A stretch of DNA of 32,000 nt from Halomicrobium mukohataei DSM 12286 (GCF_000023965.1 NC_013202.1:3060001-3092000), one strand, 5' to 3'. Shown: positions 14,965 through 27,038, numbered from the stretch's first letter. Translations and numbers: made by a program. The notes: generated from the sequence alone by a model not told the origin.

Positions 14965-15147
14965 TCAGACCGGGCGCTTGTCTTCCGAGGTGCCGACGAA
15001 CAGCGCACCGGCGGCCATTCCGAGCGCGGCGATCGAGGCCGCCCACAGCGGGAAACCGCTGCCTAACTGACCGGTGCCCAGAATGATCGCGCTGCTCGCG
15101 ACGAGCAAGACCGTGCCCAGTACGACTTTTCGCGTATCCGTTGCCAT
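14965..15147 (-). CDS. small two-TM membrane protein (60 aa)
   Basis: Uses the internal ATG at 15145-15147 (MATDTRKVVLGTVLLVASSAIILG...). Two hydrophobic helices and GC-rich codons. A TATA-like box lies about 25-30 nt upstream. Confidence 0.45.
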   Translation of the reverse strand: MATDTRKVVLGTVLLVASSAIILGTGQLGSGFPLWAASIAALGMAAGALFVGTSEDKRPV

Positions 15148-15171
15148 ACCCGGTACTAGCGGGTCATCCGG

Positions 15172-15177
15172 TATAAG
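15172..15177 (-). promoter_or_regulatory. putative TATA box for the 14965-15147 gene
   Basis: The minus strand reads CTTATA, 24 nt upstream of the ATG. This spacing is expected for a leaderless haloarchaeal transcript. Confidence 0.3.
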
Positions 15178-15343
15178 TTTCTCCAAAACCGCCCGACACG
15201 GCCGTGATAACTGGGACCAAACCACACAGTATCGGGGCGTTACGCGCTATAGTAACAATTGAAACGATTTACACACCGATCGCACTGCTGTCGTGCGATC
15301 GGGTGAACATTGAATTTCAATGGCTACTATAGTTTGCCGGATC

Positions 15344-15705
15344 GTGTTCAGATAAGCCACTGCATCTTCTGAGTTGTAGACACCGAAAGCCCTCGTCGCG
15401 CTCCGGCATTCTGTGACGGATATCTTCACTTCGTTCAGATAGTGCCGCCACAGAATGCCGGACCACGACTCGCCCTTTCATCCGCCAGGAGAGCACGCTC
15501 TCCTGAGCCTGTGCTCACCCTGTTCGCACAGACGCCAGGATTCGGCCGTTGAACCGTCTAGACCCTGGTGGATGAAAGGGCGAGCGCAGTTGCGGGAACC
15601 CCGACGATGCAAGCACCGACTGGAGCGCAGCGAGTCGCGGGACCGCAACTGCGCGAGGGCTTTCGGTGTCTGCACCACTACGCTGACAGTCGCTTATCTG
15701 AACAC
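15344..15705. repeat. nested-palindrome structured element, copy 1 (362 bp)
   Basis: GTGTTCAGATAAG 15344-15356 pairs with CTTATCTGAACAC 15693-15705. AGACACCGAAAGCCCTCG 15378-15395 pairs with 15654-15671 (18 bp, perfect). Three internal hairpins have stems at 15403-15419/15445-15461, 15469-15489/15564-15584 and 15585-15595/15643-15653. Confidence 0.8.
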
Positions 15706-15776
15706 TACCGTTTGCCGGTCGGTACTGCGACAGAGAGAACAGTCGACTTTTGGTCGGCGACGACCTTCGCCGGACA

Positions 15777-16262
15777 ATGAGCGAGCGAGCCACCGATCTC
15801 CTGACGCGTGTCGCGACCTACCAGTTCGGCCCCGGAGCCGACGAGGCGCTGTTCCCCGACGTCGACGGGCTGGACGTGACGACGACGCGTTCCGGGCGAC
15901 CGCGACAGGTGCGCGATGGCGACGACCGACTGCTGGAGTACGGCAGTGACGGGCGATTCACGCTCGGCGTCGCCGGTGGGCGACGCCTCCTCGACGGCCT
16001 CGACGACGCGCGCCATCAGGTCGTCGTCGGCGACGACAGCGAGCCGTTCGTCCGGGAGGGACGCAACGCCTTCGCGAAGTTCGTCCGGTCGGCAGACGAG
16101 GGCATCCGGCCGGGCGACGAGGTGCTGGTGGTCCACTACGATGGCGACCTCCTGGGCGTCGGTCGGGCCGAGTTACCCGGCGAAGCCATGCTCGACTTCG
16201 AGACGGGGATGGCGGTCAAAGTCCGTCACGGTGCCGGCACTGCGGACGCGTCCGAATCGTAG
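15777..16262 (+). CDS. PUA domain-containing protein
   Basis: The C-terminal [43 protein letters not shown] is a typical PUA fold sequence. I chose the ATG at 15777 (MSERATDLL) over the TTG at 15750. Confidence 0.7.
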
Positions 16263-16317
16263 CGAGCGTCGACGGCAGGTCGGTGTCCTTTTGACGGCGG
16301 CCCACGCACGGACGGGT

Positions 16318-16716
16318 ATGTTCGGAGGAGGCGGCGGCGGACTCAATCCGCGCAAGATGAAGCAGATGATGGAACAGATGGGCATCGACATGGAGGACAT
16401 CGATGCCGAAGAAGTGATCATTCGGACCCCCGACAAGGAGCTGTACTTCACCGACGCCGAGGTCCAGCTCATGGAGGCCCAGGGCCAGTCGACCTATCAG
16501 GTCGTCGGCGAGCCCGAGGAGCGAGCCCTCGAAGCCGGCGACGACGGTGAGAGCGAGGCCGACGCGTCGGCCGGCGACGCCGCCGGTGACAGCGGGATTC
16601 CCGACGACGACGTGGAGCTGGTGGCGATGCGTGCCGGCGTCGACGAGGAGACCGCCCGCGAGGCGCTCGAAGCGGAGGACGGCGACCTCGCTGGCGCAGT
16701 CGAGCGCCTGGAGTGA
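16318..16716 (+). CDS. nac: nascent polypeptide-associated complex protein (archaeal NAC)
   Basis: [37 protein letters not shown] forms the NAC domain. A C-terminal UBA-like segment is present ([34 protein letters not shown]). The ATG is internal to a longer track ORF. Confidence 0.9.
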
Positions 16717-17447
16717 CGTACCTCCTCATCCACGAGGGCGAAGACCGCGAGTACCTCCTCGCGGCCGGCGAGACCCTGGAGACCGATCTGGGCGTGCTGG
16801 AAGTCCCCGACGATCCCGAGCCGGGCCAGATCGTCGAGACGCATCTCGACGAGCCGTTCACCGTGCGCGAACTGCGCGGCCCGGACCTGTTCAACCACCT
16901 CGAACGCACCGGCGCGCCGATGATGCCACGGGACATCGGGATCGTCGTCGGCAAGACCGGCCTCCAGTCGGGCGACCGCGTGCTCGATGCCGGCACCGGA
17001 ACGGGCGTCCTCGCGGCCTACCTCGCGCGGATGGGCGTGACAGTGACGACCTACGAACGAGATCCGGAGTTCGCCGACGTGGCCCGCGAGAACATGGCGA
17101 TGGCCGGCGTCGAAGACCGAGTTGACGTGCGCAGCGGCGACGTGACCGAAGCCGTCGACGCCCTCGCCGAGACCGACTTCGACGTGGTCACACTCGACAC
17201 CGGGGACGCCGCGGCGGTCGTCGAGCGAGCGCCGGAGTTGCTCGTCCCCGGCGGCTTTCTGGCCGTCTACTCGCCGTTCGTCGAGCAGGCCCGCGAAGCG
17301 ATCCAGACCGCGCGGGACGCCGGACTACGGGACGCCGAAACGCTGGAGACGATTCAGCGCGCGCTCGACGTGAGCGACCGCGGCACCCGGCCGTCGACGC
17401 GGGGCGTCGGGCACACCGGCTACCTGACGTTCGCACGCAACCCCTGA
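16713..17447 (+). CDS. trmI: tRNA (adenine-N1)-methyltransferase, TrmI/Gcd14 family
   Basis: SAM-binding motif [16 protein letters not shown] and a C-terminal HTGYLTFAR typical of TrmI. The GTG start overlaps the nac stop. Confidence 0.8.
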
Positions 17448-17495
17448 CACCGCCGGCTGTCGGTCCGTGCGGACGCGACTACGCGTCGTCGAGGG

Positions 17496-18206
17496 TCAGA
17501 CGACGGCGATACCCGTCGCCAGCAGATTGATCCCGAGGTGTGCGATCGTGCTACTGGCCGTTCCATAGCGGTGTCTGAGGAGGCCGAGGACGACCGCGAT
17601 CACGACCAGCGACACGAAGCGGAACGTCGGTGCGCCGAGGTCGACGACGACGTGTTTCGCCACGAACGCCCCAGCAGTCACGGCAATCCCAAGCGCCGGT
17701 CCGTACGCGTCGACGAGTGCCGTCTGGACGACGCCACGCCAGGCCAACTCCTCTGCGATCGGGACGATCACACCGTTGACCAACAGGAGTGTCGGGACGA
17801 CCCAGACGGCCGTCTCGGCACCGCCTGCAGGCGTCGGCACTGAGGGAACGCCGACGGTGAAGACGTAGACGACCGCGAACGTCAGCAGCAGGGCGAAGTA
17901 GGCCACGACGCCGACGATGCCACCGGCGACGGCACCCGGAGACAGCTCGTAGCGCCAGCGATCGGGCCCGATACCGCTCCAGCGCCCGATCGTTGCTGCC
18001 AGGACAGCGAGAGTCGGAAACGTGATCGCGAGCAGGAGCATATCCGCGCCCTCACCGCTTCCGACCGCATCGGCGAGCAGTGGTGTTCCGCGACGGCGCA
18101 CGAGAAACTCCACTGTGACCCACGTCGCGACGACGACGGCCGCGAGCGCGCGCGGATCCGACAGCATACGCCCGAGTCTCCGGGCAGGAGCATCTGGTTC
18201 AGACAT
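17496..18206 (-). CDS. CPBP family intramembrane glutamic endopeptidase (CAAX/Abi-type)
   Basis: Multi-TM protein with the EELAWRG motif and downstream His motifs (FVAKHVV, IAHLGINL). Confidence 0.8.
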   Translation of the reverse strand: MSEPDAPARRLGRMLSDPRALAAVVVATWVTVEFLVRRRGTPLLADAVGSGEGADMLLLAITFPTLAVLAATIGRWSGIGPDRWRYELSPGAVAGGIVGVVAYFALLLTFAVVYVFTVGVPSVPTPAGGAETAVWVVPTLLLVNGVIVPIAEELAWRGVVQTALVDAYGPALGIAVTAGAFVAKHVVVDLGAPTFRFVSLVVIAVVLGLLRHRYGTASSTIAHLGINLLATGIAVV

Positions 18207-18331
18207 CTCGGTAGTCGTTCGATCGCACTTGGGCTCGCGTGTGGCCGGTCCGATTCACGATCCTCGTCTCGGAGTGTCGAAACAAAGGTGTTTCCTCGAC
18301 AGCGAGTGGTGCTGCCGAGAAGACACCGGAC

Positions 18332-18946
18332 CTACTCGATCGCCCGGATCAGATCGAGGAGTTCGTCGCGGTACTGTTGGCGCGTTCGCGTCAGCACCTC
18401 TGGTGGATCGTCGGTCTCGAGGATTTCGGCCACGGGGCGGGCTGGATACGCGCCGGCACCGATGCGAAAGCCATCGCCGTGCCAGACGCCGACCCAGCCG
18501 GCGATCGGCAGCGTCGCGTCCAGCCCCGACATCGGCAGTTCGGCCCGAAACTGCGTGAGCTTCGCTCGCTCGCCAGACGCGACGCGGACACGCTCCGTAC
18601 GGCCCCGTCCGATCGACTCGAAGCCGCGGTCTCGCAGCTCGGACTTGAAGGTCCTGTTGGCCTCCGAACGGACCGTCGGGAGGATCATCGCGGGGCCGAT
18701 GCCGGGCGACAGCGACGGCGTAAACGTCAGCTTCGTCGCGAAGAAAAACCGCCAGCGCTGGTCGAGGCCGCCGTGCTCGGCGGCCGCCCGACGAGTTCGC
18801 TCGTCACCGTACAGCAGCGTCGCGCCTTCGACACGGGTCCCGGGGAGCTGAAACACCGTCTCGACGGTCGCGTCCGTTCGGGTCCAGCCGCCGTCTTCGA
18901 GTCGCCGCTCGGGGACCGAGGGGTACCGCTCGTCGGAAGGTGACAC
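18332..18946 (-). CDS. hypothetical protein
   Basis: 204 aa ORF with a GTG start, GC-rich third positions and balanced composition. I recognise no motif. Confidence 0.5.
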   Translation of the reverse strand: MSPSDERYPSVPERRLEDGGWTRTDATVETVFQLPGTRVEGATLLYGDERTRRAAAEHGGLDQRWRFFFATKLTFTPSLSPGIGPAMILPTVRSEANRTFKSELRDRGFESIGRGRTERVRVASGERAKLTQFRAELPMSGLDATLPIAGWVGVWHGDGFRIGAGAYPARPVAEILETDDPPEVLTRTRQQYRDELLDLIRAIE

Positions 18947-18991
18947 ACCTCGTACTGGTGGCGGAACTCACCTAACAGTTCCGTCGAACGG

Positions 18992-19315
18992 TCAGTGGTC
19001 GTCTTCGCGCCACTTGTGGTCGCACTCGGTACAGGTGAAAAAGCGCGTCTCGGACTCGTCGGCGGCCCGGATCTGCTTCATCTCCCAGAAGGCCCGGTCG
19101 TTGCCACACTCGGGACAGTGTGCGTCCGTCGTCGGCCCCATGTCTTCGGCCTCGACCTCGGAAGTGTCGACGATCTCGCTCTCTTCCTGGCCCTGCGTGG
19201 TCACCATCGAACTTTCGTCCGCCGCGTCGCGGGCCCGCTCGGCACCGCAGCTGCCACAGACCCAGACGCCGTCTTCGGCTTTCATCATCGAACCGCAGTC
19301 GTCACAGAACTCCAT
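18992..19315 (-). CDS. tfs: transcription factor S (TFIIS/RpoM-like)
   Basis: N-terminal zinc ribbon MEFCDDCGSMM...VCGSCG and C-terminal zinc ribbon CPECGNDRAFWEMKQIRAADESETRFFTCTECDHKW with the acidic hairpin. The ATG at 19313-19315 was preferred over the track start. Confidence 0.9.
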   Translation of the reverse strand: MEFCDDCGSMMKAEDGVWVCGSCGAERARDAADESSMVTTQGQEESEIVDTSEVEAEDMGPTTDAHCPECGNDRAFWEMKQIRAADESETRFFTCTECDHKWREDDH

Positions 19316-19370
19316 GGTTGACTGGGATTGCAATCGAAGTGGTTTAAGCTCGGGGGTTCATCGCTCGGCG

Positions 19371-19682
19371 GTGTTCAGATAAGCAGCAGCACTGACTGAC
19401 ATATAGACACCGAAAGCCCTCGTGCAGTTGCGGTCCCGCGGCTCGCTGCGCGCGCTCCGCGTGCTTGCTTCGCCGGGGTTCCCGCAACTGCACTCGCCCT
19501 TTCATCCGCCAGGGTTCAGACGGTGAACCAGCCGATTCCTGGTGGATGAAAGGGCGAGGTGCGGTCGACGGTTCTGCGGCGGCACTATCGAACGCAGTGA
19601 AGATATCCGCCACAGAACCGCCGAGCGTGCCGAGGGCTTTCGGTGCCTCGACGATGCTACTCTCGATCTCTTATCTGAACAC
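19371..19682. repeat. nested-palindrome structured element, copy 2 (312 bp, inverted relative to copy 1)
   Basis: It has the same terminal 13-mers (19371-19383 and 19670-19682). The 18-mer stem is 19405-19422 with 19631-19648 (17 of 18 paired). Hairpins lie at 19493-19513/19538-19558 and 19569-19582/19607-19620. The internal order and loop sequences equal the reverse complement of copy 1. Confidence 0.8.
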
Positions 19683-19692
19683 TACCCATCGC

Positions 19693-20709
19693 TCAGCGTT
19701 CCAGCCAGCTCGAACAGGCGTCGAGGTCGTCCATGGTTCGCTCGTGGAGCTGGCAGTACGGCCTCGACTCGCCGTCTTCCATCACGTACTCGAAGTGTCG
19801 ACAGTTCCCACAGTACGCTTCGAGGGAGTCTTCGTTCTCGTCACCGTCGCTCGTCGAATCGAGGACGTCGTTGCTGAAGGCTGCGCCACCGGTCACCGTT
19901 CCGTCGCCTTCGATCACTTCGCCGCCGTCGGCGCTGGGTTCAGTCTGTAGTCCTCTGGAGTAGCCCGTGGCGGTGTCCGCGATGGGATCGAAGGACTCCG
20001 TCTGGGTGGCATCGGCCGACCGTCGATCGGCGGCCGGCGACCCGCCGTCGTCGGCCGCGTCGCTGTCGTCGCGTGTTGCGCCCGTGACGGTCGCGCCGTC
20101 GTGACCGGTCGACGCGGTCTCGCGGTTCGTCTGGGTCTCGACCTCGCCGTCGAGGTCCGTCCCGAAGAGGCCGACACCGCCAAAGCGGCCGAGCGAGCGG
20201 GCCTCTTCGACGAGCTGGATCGTCCCCTGGCGGGTGATCTCCATGCGGGCCGTCCCGCCGGGATCGTTGCGGGTCTTGAACGTCGCCAGTGCGACGAACA
20301 GACACCAGAAGATCGTGACGACGCCGAAGAAGTAGACGGCCGTCGTCGCCAGCGTCAGCAGCGGCGCGGCGGTGACCCAGTCGTAGGGATAGACGTGCTG
20401 GAACATGGCGACACCGATCGCCGTGATTCCCGTCCCGACGATTGCAGCCCCACGGACCGACCGCGACGCCGGGAGGACGGCGAAGACGCCGAGCAACACG
20501 GCCGGTAAGCCGAGTCCCGCGAGGACCCCCGCAAGCTCTCGGGCAGGATACCGCCCCAGCGACTGGACACCCACGTTCGTCGTCGCCAGCGCGATGGCAC
20601 CCACGACCATCGACCCACCGACGAGAAAGAGCGCGCTGCCGAGGAGCTGTTGTCGCCGGCTGGCCACCCGGCCGACGTTGCCCTCGTACACGTCTGTGAG
20701 ACTCGTCAT
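19693..20709 (-). CDS. membrane protein with acidic linker and C-terminal Cys-rich (zinc-ribbon-like) domain
   Basis: About 4 N-terminal TM helices, then a long D/E/T/G-rich low-complexity stretch, then YCGNCRHFEYVMEDGESRPYCQLHERTMDDLDACSSW at the C-terminus. Confidence 0.6.
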   Translation of the reverse strand: MTSLTDVYEGNVGRVASRRQQLLGSALFLVGGSMVVGAIALATTNVGVQSLGRYPARELAGVLAGLGLPAVLLGVFAVLPASRSVRGAAIVGTGITAIGVAMFQHVYPYDWVTAAPLLTLATTAVYFFGVVTIFWCLFVALATFKTRNDPGGTARMEITRQGTIQLVEEARSLGRFGGVGLFGTDLDGEVETQTNRETASTGHDGATVTGATRDDSDAADDGGSPAADRRSADATQTESFDPIADTATGYSRGLQTEPSADGGEVIEGDGTVTGGAAFSNDVLDSTSDGDENEDSLEAYCGNCRHFEYVMEDGESRPYCQLHERTMDDLDACSSWLER

Positions 20710-24376: not shown

Positions 24377-24627
24377 CGCCGCTCGACGACCCGGTCGATC
24401 GTCAGCCGGTCGTAGCCCAGCCCCTCGTGGACCGCGAGCTCCAAGGCGTTGACGAGATAGTGGGCGACGACGACCACGAGCAGGCTGTCGGTGAGGACGA
24501 ACCCGGCCGCCAGCGCCAGACCGAGCCCGCCGGTGACGAGCATCCCGACTCGCCCCTGCGCGCCGTGAGCGGCACCGAAGACGACCGACGAGGCTGCGTG
24601 CAGCCACGGCGAGAGAGAGAAGCCAGC
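24373..24627 (-). pseudogene. orphan 3' fragment of a CPBP/abi gene (duplicate of 26226-26480)
   Basis: Minus-strand translation is ...AGFSLSPWLHAASSVVFGAAHGAQGRVGMLVTGGLGLALAAGFVLTDSLLVVVVAHYLVNALELAVHEGLGYDRLTIDRVVERR*. Nucleotides 24395-24592 match 26241-26438 with 5 mismatches in 198 nt by hand alignment. There is no N-terminal part and no start codon. Confidence 0.75.
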
Positions 24628-26225: not shown

Positions 26226-27038
26226 TTAGTCGATGAGCGTCTCGATCGTCAGCCGGTCGTAGCCCAGCCCCTCGTGGACCGCGAGCTCCAGGGCGTTGAC
26301 GAGGTAGTGGGCGACGACGACCACGAGCAGGCTGTCGGTGAGGACGAACCCGGCCGCCAGCGCCAGACCGAGCCCGCCGGTGACGAGCATGCCGACGCGC
26401 CCCTGCGCGCCGTGGGCGGCACCGAAGACGACCGACGAGACGACCGCGAGCAGCCACGGCGAGACGGAGAATCCGGCCGCCATCGCGCCGATGGCAGCGC
26501 CACGGAAGACGACCTCCTCGACGACGGCGACGGTCGGCAGCGCGACGCCGAGCAACAGCACCCACCCACCCAGTGAGTCGGGGGCGAGCAGTTCGCGGAC
26601 GGCCTCGTCGTAGCCCGCACCGGTGGCGTCGGCGACTGCACCCGCGGCTTCGTTGGCCAGCCAGAGGGCGACGCCGAAGCCGATCCCGACGGCGACGCCG
26701 GGGAGCCCACGGGCGAGCGCGGTCTCGGGGATCCCGAGCGCCCACGGCGGGATCGAGAAGTACACCGCGGCCCCGACGACGACCGCGCCGAACAGCCCCT
26801 GGGTCACGACGACGTTGGCGAGCAAGGCACCGGGCGACAGCCGCGCCCGCGGGTCCGCTACCGGCCGCTCGAAGCGCGGCACGACCGGGTCGGTCGGTCG
26901 CGGATCGCGTGGCGAGGGCTCCCTGAACCGGACTGGGTCGTCGTCGCCGCTCAGGGCAGACTGGGACGCTCTCGCGAGTGCGAGAAGCAAGAACAGAGAG
27001 AGGGCGAGCAGGCCGGCGAAGGCGGCCCACCGCGCCAC
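26226..27038 (-). CDS. abi: CPBP family intramembrane protease (Abi), second gene of the lonB operon
   Basis: EEVVFRGAAIG and FGAAHG motifs in a multi-TM protein. The GTG start is only 4 nt after the lonB stop. A lonB-abi arrangement is established for Haloferax volcanii. Confidence 0.8.
   Translation of the reverse strand: MARWAAFAGLLALSLFLLLALARASQSALSGDDDPVRFREPSPRDPRPTDPVVPRFERPVADPRARLSPGALLANVVVTQGLFGAVVVGAAVYFSIPPWALGIPETALARGLPGVAVGIGFGVALWLANEAAGAVADATGAGYDEAVRELLAPDSLGGWVLLLGVALPTVAVVEEVVFRGAAIGAMAAGFSVSPWLLAVVSSVVFGAAHGAQGRVGMLVTGGLGLALAAGFVLTDSLLVVVVAHYLVNALELAVHEGLGYDRLTIETLID

Follow-up and report, generated by a model that had tools for sequence, protein, structure and literature searches.

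Archaeal insertion sequences (IS) of the IS6 family are about 700–745 bp long, carry terminal inverted repeats (TIRs) of 14–18 bp that mostly start with GG and have a G at position 7, and generate 8-bp target site duplications (TSDs) (PMC6807381, PMC7986276). For Halomicrobium mukohataei, ISHmu2 and ISHmu9 are on record, and ISfinder holds two IS6-family MITEs, MITEBth2 and MITEHarch3 (PMC6807381, PMC7986276). MITEs are a well-known kind of element, and those of haloarchaea are routinely curated. The MITEHsal1-14 families of Halobacterium and the HqIRS families of Haloquadratum share the definition that applies to the element described here, namely the TIRs of a resident transposon, a matching TSD and an unrelated interior; in both genera, mobile elements often insert into other mobile elements. 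None of the described MITEHsal and HqIRS families is assigned to the ISH14 group with the interior found here, and flipping of a core segment does not appear in the descriptions that were consulted. The searchable literature yielded no description of this MITE family and no named Halomicrobium MITEs.

The stretch of DNA that we analysed, called the window, comprises 32,000 nucleotides of H. mukohataei DSM 12286 and is identical in sequence to CP045142.1 (GCA_009217585.1). The original prediction had placed a non-coding nested palindrome at 15344–15705 and had offered a MITE or a structured RNA as explanations, without being able to name a family. An element is indeed present at this position, and the MITE option was the correct one, as judged from IS6-type TIRs and 8-bp TSDs; the proposed span was 4 nt too short at either end. 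The element, copy 1, extends from 15340 to 15709 (370 bp), its ends being set by the terminal 13-mers and the abutting duplications, and the four additional nucleotides per end were assigned to it because they are part of the terminal inverted repeat of the parent IS. The direct repeat seen in the flanks also exists, not as a 9-mer set off from the element by 3–4 nt but as an abutting 8-bp TSD, GTTTGCCG, located at 15332–15339 on the left and in identical form at 15710–15717 on the right. A longer flanking repeat of 15 nt, ACTAnnGTTTGCCGG, was rejected as a unit, as it is partly a coincidence: its ACTATA is part of a neighbouring mini-MITE. The family, too, can be named, since the TIRs and the 8-bp duplication place it in the ISH14/ISH15/ISH29 group. 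With the parent group nameable, most of the novelty claimed for the element is gone.

The IS6 family was considered because of the 8-bp duplication and the ends starting with GG. The left TIR of copy 1, GATCGTGTTCAGATAAG (15340–15356, plus strand, 17 nt), contains a 13-nt core, GTGTTCAGATAAG, which is also found at the ends of ISH15 (locus L043), ISH29 (L053) and other IS6-family elements. The right TIR, CTTATCTGAACACTACC (15693–15709, plus strand), recurs unchanged as the right end of ISH29, of a Halomicrobium urmianum copy and of an IMG/VR copy. ISH15 from Haloarcula marismortui pNG500 has the ends CGTAGTGTTCAGATAAGG... and ...GCTTATCTGAACACGATG, with the stop codon of its transposase located inside the right repeat. 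Ends of the general form GG(C)(G/A)GTGTTCAGATAAG and CTTATCTGAACAC(T/G)ACC are present in ISH29 (pNRC200), on a Halapricum plasmid, in Natrarchaeobaculum, in a frameshifted copy on a H. urmianum plasmid and in a copy on an IMG/VR contig. Clean 8-bp duplications flank three of these ISs as well: GATAGGCC for ISH29, GCGCAGCC for the Halapricum copy and GTCAAACC for an IMG/VR copy. The 17-bp MITE TIR, GG(T/C)(A/G)GTGTTCAGATAAG, is identical to these ISH15/ISH29-type ends, which belong to elements with a 211-aa transposase. Its outer 4 nt differ between copies, and the outer tetranucleotides GGCG, GGTA and GGTC are common to MITE copies and parent ISs. Written out as GGTAGTGTTCAGATAAG, the TIR has G at positions 1, 2 and 7 and TGTT at positions 6–9, and it fits the published description of archaeal IS6 TIRs.

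The elements ISH14, ISH15 and ISH29 form an archaeal IS6 branch of about 697 bp with a 211-aa DDE transposase (PF13610). They have the TIR core GTGTTCAGATAAG and the 8-bp TSD in common with the MITE, and their left subterminal sequence AAGGATTGAAGAGTGAGGCACGG resembles one type of MITE arm, the X-type arm AAGAGATCGAGAGT...GAGGCACCG. In contrast to them, the MITE has no transposase gene, and its interior of 240–290 bp, consisting of the inverted block IR18 and the hairpins A, C and B, is without a counterpart in the IS. Similarity between MITE and parent IS is limited to the outermost stretches, about 40 nt on the left and about 20 nt on the right. MITEHarch3 (halophilic archaeon DL31) and MITEBth2 (227 and 336 bp), compared by their descriptions, likewise have IS6-type ends, no transposase and a similar size; a blastn search of a plasmid collection with copy 1 gave no match in the DL31 plasmid CP002989. 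We consider it highly probable (about 90%) that archaeal IS6-family ISs of the ISH14/ISH15/ISH29 type gave rise to the family and mobilise it in trans. The assignment as an IS6-type MITE is made because of the 17-bp TIRs, the 8-bp TSD, the lack of a recognisable protein, the many unrelated insertion sites and an empty orthologous site.

A check for further copies showed that the element belongs to a multi-copy family. One scan of a species-representative genome collection for two conserved 12-mers located 55–85 nt apart returned 36 loci, 35 of them haloarchaeal. About 20 of these lie in Halomicrobium katesii DSM 19301 and 12 in the MAG Halobacteriales archaeon QS_4_62_28, and single loci were found in Halobacterium sp. 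KA-4, HArc-gm2, Halorussus litoreus and the MAG QS_9_67_15. A Sorangium locus looks like a chance match and was set aside. Complete copies were cut out by their terminal 13-mers, which yielded at least 18 further complete copies in H. katesii and others in the Halobacteriales MAG and in Halorhabdus. All extracted copies run on for 4 nt past the ends originally proposed, and the 17-nt TIR is present at both ends in 21 complete copies. In a scripted count, a perfect 8-bp TSD flanks 14 of the 22 complete copies and a TSD with one mismatch flanks 2 more; the duplicated sequences all differ (among them GTTTCTTT, GTGCAGTT, TGCGGAGT, CCAACTGT and ATCGCACG). Copy lengths range from 320 to 403 bp with two main classes, 320 and 370 bp, the latter having 50 nt more in the central loop, and additional loop insertions account for variants of 373 and 403 bp. 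Halorhabdus tiamatea has a shorter variant of 215 bp with the same TIRs and a recognisable hairpin B. Among viral contigs, a scan for TIR plus IR18 gave 0 matches, and a scan for the hairpin B motif returned only three low-GC chance matches.

The same ends bear on a different class of small element. Prominent subterminal and internal hairpins could also point to a PATE of the IS200/IS605 type, which would be moved as single-stranded DNA by a Y1 transposase, and both IS605-type elements and PATEs abound in haloarchaea (PMC3119063). PATEs and IS605 elements are, however, without terminal inverted repeats and without target duplication (PMC3119063), and the 17-bp TIRs and 8-bp TSDs of the family contradict this reading, to which we give practically no weight.

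For the second copy in the window, an empty site is available for comparison. Copy 2 (19367–19686, minus strand, 320 bp) is flanked by the TSD CATCGCTC at 19359–19366 and 19687–19694, as found by comparing the duplications. Alignment shows its core to be opposite in orientation to that of copy 1: the interior aligns with copy 1 in reverse orientation only, with 82% identity. The MAG locus L019 is syntenic with window positions 14987–19816; both window copies are absent from it, and its own copy sits in another spacer. When copy 2 and one TSD are subtracted, the spacer between the TFS and CdpA genes is colinear with the 58-bp spacer of the MAG (L019:7707–7800). On this alignment the copy 2 site is empty in a related genome, and copy 2 is an insertion and not ancestral sequence.

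The position orthologous to 19359–19694 was also seen in H. katesii (L057:~1075–1165), where only a remnant of about 80 bp is present, in which a TIR joined to IR18 is accompanied by an X-type arm and a further TIR. The remnant shares its right-hand duplication and its terminal GGCG with the window, the core is lost, and an X-type arm stands where the window has a Y-type arm; the upstream gene is ScpA at this locus and CdpA in the window. The locus represents a MITE-associated rearrangement. The gene context that had been noted for copy 1 holds: PUA/TGT_C2, NAC and GCD14/TrmI genes lie downstream of it, and Pfam matches confirm these neighbours as well as TFS and CdpA. Between trmI and a DUF6517 gene, the window contains a gene for an Rce1-like CPBP protease (17496–18206), which is missing at the corresponding position in H. 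katesii.

Movement of the MITE would require a transposase supplied from elsewhere. We propose that the 211-aa DDE transposase, of the ISH14 type, of an autonomous copy elsewhere in the cell binds and nicks both MITE ends, which it then joins to a target cut with an 8-bp stagger. From what is known about the IS6 family, transposition would be replicative and proceed via a cointegrate, which host recombination between genome copies may then resolve to a simple insertion. Haloarchaea, being polyploid, carry out such recombination with ease. Within the MITE, the short inverted blocks that are conserved act as points of recombination, as the outcomes of exchange in the copies show; candidate mechanisms are named below.

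Against the explanation as an IS6 MITE weigh the absence of an autonomous IS6 copy from the window and from the 8-kb MITE loci and the identity of copy 2 in two sequenced strains. In the window and in the MITE loci, tblastn with the IS26 transposase and with the ISH15 and ISH17 proteins found no IS6 gene. Two candidates for an autonomous parent were rejected: the lone TIR-like site at L004 flanks ordinary gene(s) and not a transposase, and the 2.7-kb TIR pair at L035 contains no transposase; the neighbours at L004 and L035 are a sensor kinase and a thermosome. A protein search with the ISH15 transposase found 2893 relatives, with no Halomicrobium entry among the 120 matches listed. ISs with matching ends come from five other haloarchaeal records or contigs and from the degenerate copy on the H. 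urmianum plasmid. A partner in the same cell is inferred from the literature record of ISHmu2 and ISHmu9 and from this degenerate copy in another Halomicrobium species.

The interior of copy 1 is built from nested inverted repeats, all parts of which are given here on the plus strand. The left TIR is followed by an arm spacer of the Y-type (..GCnnCTG..TAGA, 15357–15379), as assigned by comparison of the arm classes, and by the 5´ arm of the conserved inverted block IR18, ACACCGAAAGCCCTCG (15380–15395), which pairs with 15654–15669. Then come hairpin A (15396–15468, 73 nt, 24 pairs according to RNAalifold) and the central stem-loop C (15469–15584), identified by inverted-repeat search and alignment and composed of a 21-bp stem, CTCGCCCTTTCATCCGCCAGG / CCTGGTGGATGAAAGGGCGAG, and a loop. 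The loop of C includes the extra segment of 50 nt (15491–15540) that is missing in the 320-bp size class. Hairpin B (15585–15653, 69 nt) has 26 predicted pairs and the unpaired motifs GGGAAC, CAAGCAC and CGGGAC. It is followed by the 3´ arm of IR18, CGAGGGCTTTCGGTGTCT (15654–15671), found by repeat search and alignment, and by a second Y-type arm spacer (15672–15692), which leads to the right TIR.

Two details of the loops are worth recording. The 50-nt segment is bordered by an 8-bp direct repeat, CGCCAGGA (15483–15490 and 15533–15540), and may have arisen by slippage or as a short inserted sequence that made a duplication of its own. In hairpin A, the loop holds GTTCAGATA at 15433–15441, an internal copy of the TIR core, and other subfamilies have GTTCGGATA or GTCGAATA there.

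All stems that had been proposed for the element were found again by an inverted-repeat search, two of them within longer arms. The outer arms (15344–15362 / 15687–15705) are 19 nt long, those around AGACACCGAAAGCCCTCG (15375–15395 / 15654–15674) and the central ones (15469–15489 / 15564–15584) 21 nt each, and all three pairs are 95% complementary. The hairpin at 15403–15419 / 15445–15461 falls inside 35-nt arms with 80% complementarity (15385–15419 / 15445–15479), and the one at 15585–15595 / 15643–15653 falls inside 22-nt arms with 82% complementarity (15574–15595 / 15643–15664); the small GGAGAGC hairpin lies at 15486–15505. Folded as RNA, the plus strand of copy 1 reaches a minimum free energy (MFE) of -216 kcal/mol, compared with -126 +/- 5.8 for dinucleotide shuffles (z = -15.4), and the minus strand reaches -231.5 kcal/mol (z = -16.5); with DNA parameters, z is -15.2. 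The structure of copy 1 is far above chance, and the folding potential is equal between the strands, which is expected for DNA palindromes.

The hairpins are conserved as structures among the copies. With consensus pairs taken from RNAalifold and with 500 column shuffles and slid registers as controls, hairpin A shows compensatory double changes in 17 of 24 consensus pairs, with 96.7% of cells paired, and hairpin B shows compensatory changes in 15 of 26 pairs, with 94% of cells paired. For both hairpins, none of the 500 column shuffles matched the observed values, and slid registers were 24–49% paired. The palindromes are thus actively maintained, be it at the DNA or the RNA level. Covariation together with conserved unpaired motifs exceeds what a passive MITE needs and is a hint of an additional constraint, which the explanation as an IS6 MITE leaves unaccounted for.

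One such constraint could be that the element is, or carries, a structured non-coding RNA, for instance a regulatory or antisense RNA, whose hairpins are selected as RNA and for which the MITE is the vehicle. Besides the strong covariation with about 94–97% of cells paired, this is favoured by the unpaired motifs of hairpin B, which are kept from Haloarculaceae to Natrialbaceae while the stems change, and by the location of copies in promoter-proximal intergenic DNA. On the other hand, no Rfam family reached the gathering score in the whole window, and between 15200 and 15850 a threshold of E<10 gave only microRNA and snoRNA matches at chance level. A scan for promoters and terminators found no site inside the element, the consensus used being that of bacterial sigma-70 promoters and intrinsic terminators and not an archaeal one. 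Both strands fold equally well, and a strand assignment by counts of G.U versus A.C pairs was abandoned, since MFE-based and alignment-based counts contradict each other and the asymmetry is inconsistent across methods and hairpins, so that no strand is singled out. In addition, the core occurs in either orientation relative to arms and neighbouring genes, copies are inserted both ways, and the loops tolerate insertions of 50–120 nt. DNA-level processes such as hairpin-templated repair and gene conversion would also be able to keep palindromes. A role as RNA seems unlikely to us on balance. As to proteins, Pfam showed no match for open reading frames inside or crossing the element, and indels between copies, 50–83 nt long in the loops, are not multiples of triplets.

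A module resembling hairpin B was observed between GAAAGGGGC...GGGGCTTTC on three Natrialbaceae plasmids from different genera (L041:2400–2600, L046:~500–700, L047:~500–700). It lies in a conserved non-coding region about 450–560 bp upstream of a gene annotated as "DNA-binding protein", and the similarity between the plasmids ends directly after it.

The arm spacers between TIR and IR18 belong either to class X (..AGATC..GA[AG]G) or to class Y (..GCnnCTG..AGA), and most copies have one of each. Copy 1, with two Y-type spacers, is a Y-Y chimera that combines two subfamilies. The Correia or NEMIS MITEs of Neisseria likewise have long inverted ends that come in two sequence types and in all four combinations, and they form long hairpins; they differ in being bacterial, in their TA duplication, in their unrelated sequence and in the transposase family that moves them.

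Arms and cores were compared separately by script, copy against copy. In 29 aligned interiors, IR18, CACCGAAAGCCCTCG, and the stem of C, CTCGCCCTTTCATCC...GGATGAAAGGGCGAG, are nearly invariant, and the hairpins between them are variable. Within each of several arm subfamilies, some copies have the core, that is A-C-B, in one direction with respect to the arms and others have it in the opposite direction. Two H. katesii copies, L001 and L007, have arms that are 0.98–1.00 identical to those of copy 2 in one direction, whereas their cores are 0.99 identical to that of copy 2 in the opposite direction, and all three copies have intact TSDs. A flipped core likewise distinguishes L005 and L018 from L025, with intact TSDs for L005 and L025 and 8-mers that differ at 3 positions for L018, and also L011 from L022, the latter without a duplication. 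The exchange interval can be narrowed down to the 15-bp IR18 at most because the flanking sequences on either side differ. As an outcome recorded in these alignments, flipping of a 240-bp core between the 15-bp IR18 copies is well documented. A reading of the core as an independent transposon nested within the arms was considered and rejected: no duplication surrounds IR18, and the adjoining arm ends differ (AGG/AAG vs AGA).

Near-identical copies with intact TSDs that show both core orientations, with breakpoints restricted to a conserved 15-bp inverted repeat, bring to mind a programmed invertible switch. A site-specific recombinase would then flip the segment bounded by IR18 and thereby control flanking genes, in a manner like hin or fim, and in the window the PUA/NAC/TrmI genes and the TFS gene do have a copy upstream of them. 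We find this very unlikely. The copies number dozens and sit at unrelated sites, and no element encodes a recombinase. The copy 2 locus is identical in a second strain (RZNE01000001.1), including the core orientation, in the two strains compared. Furthermore, exchange is not confined to IR18 but has also taken place at the TIR core and the C stem and between different copies, which fits a general proneness to recombination and not a dedicated switch.

Two further H. katesii copies, L032:5694–6054 with X-X arms and L034:4929–5290 with Y-Y arms, lack a TSD, and the core of one is inverted with respect to that of the other. On both sides, the 8-mers that flank them are reverse complements, AGCCCAGC / GCTGGGCT and CTGGCGAA / TTCGCCAG. 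The two copies represent reciprocal products of a single chromosomal inversion, to which two routes can be envisaged. A single crossover between the IR18 of a "flip" copy and the IR18 of a "flop" copy fits all features. Intramolecular replicative transposition, a hallmark of the IS6 family, fits the same flanks and would need an extra exchange of arms.

Modules have also been exchanged among the MAG copies, where hairpins on either side of stem C are swapped and A is replaced, for instance, by a B-type hairpin in inverted orientation. Arms, too, have been reshuffled from copy to copy, and recombinants sit at sites of chromosomal rearrangement. Candidate mechanisms for flipping and shuffling are template switching at hairpins in replication, gene conversion between copies, cleavage of an extruded four-way junction and a site-specific activity. 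The conserved blocks of 15–22 bp (TIR core, IR18 and C stem), together with covarying hairpins that have fixed loop motifs, might constitute a four-way-junction module that is actively recognised, either by a structure-specific or site-specific recombination activity or because the module acts as RNA. We regard this as unlikely.

Other mobile elements lie close to or inside the MITE copies. A separate mini-MITE of about 87 bp is located directly left of copy 1 (window 15245–15333), with the TIR TATAGTAACAATTGAAA / TTTCAATGGCTACTATA and an inner hairpin CCGATCGCAC / GTGCGATCGG; its flanks probably carry a TA duplication. In H. katesii, five more copies with 87–94% identity are present (L005, L013, L021, L022 and L032), and at L012 an IS6-type MITE is inserted inside a copy of the mini-MITE. 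The third of these small elements, about 83 bp long (ATACGGACGGTTGTAGG...CCTACAACTTTCCGTAT), lies in the central loop of the MITE copy L015:1032–1353 and also truncates a mini-MITE copy at L032:~1360–1400, so that mobile elements are nested in mobile elements. Elsewhere in the window, a direct repeat of 210 nt with 95% identity (24383–24592 and 26230–26439, 1847 nt apart) with an adjoining 62-nt repeat was observed, which probably represents paralogous genes.

For annotation, these results remove a supposed unknown structured RNA and put in its place a MITE family, abundant in Halomicrobium and related Haloarculaceae, with exact boundaries, a TSD and a parent IS group. Its recombination behaviour and its covarying hairpins set the family slightly above a routine repeat. 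The flipped cores with intact TSDs, the X-X / Y-Y inversion pair and the rearranged orthologous remnant form a clean record from nature of how very short inverted repeats recombine. It can now be tested in what way palindromic repeats of this small size remodel the genomes of polyploid archaea, and whether the hairpins, conserved as they are, serve a separate function. If the hairpins and conserved blocks do act as a recognised four-way-junction module, this would make the MITE a portable flip-flop recombination hotspot that generates inversions and shuffles modules in polyploid haloarchaeal genomes.
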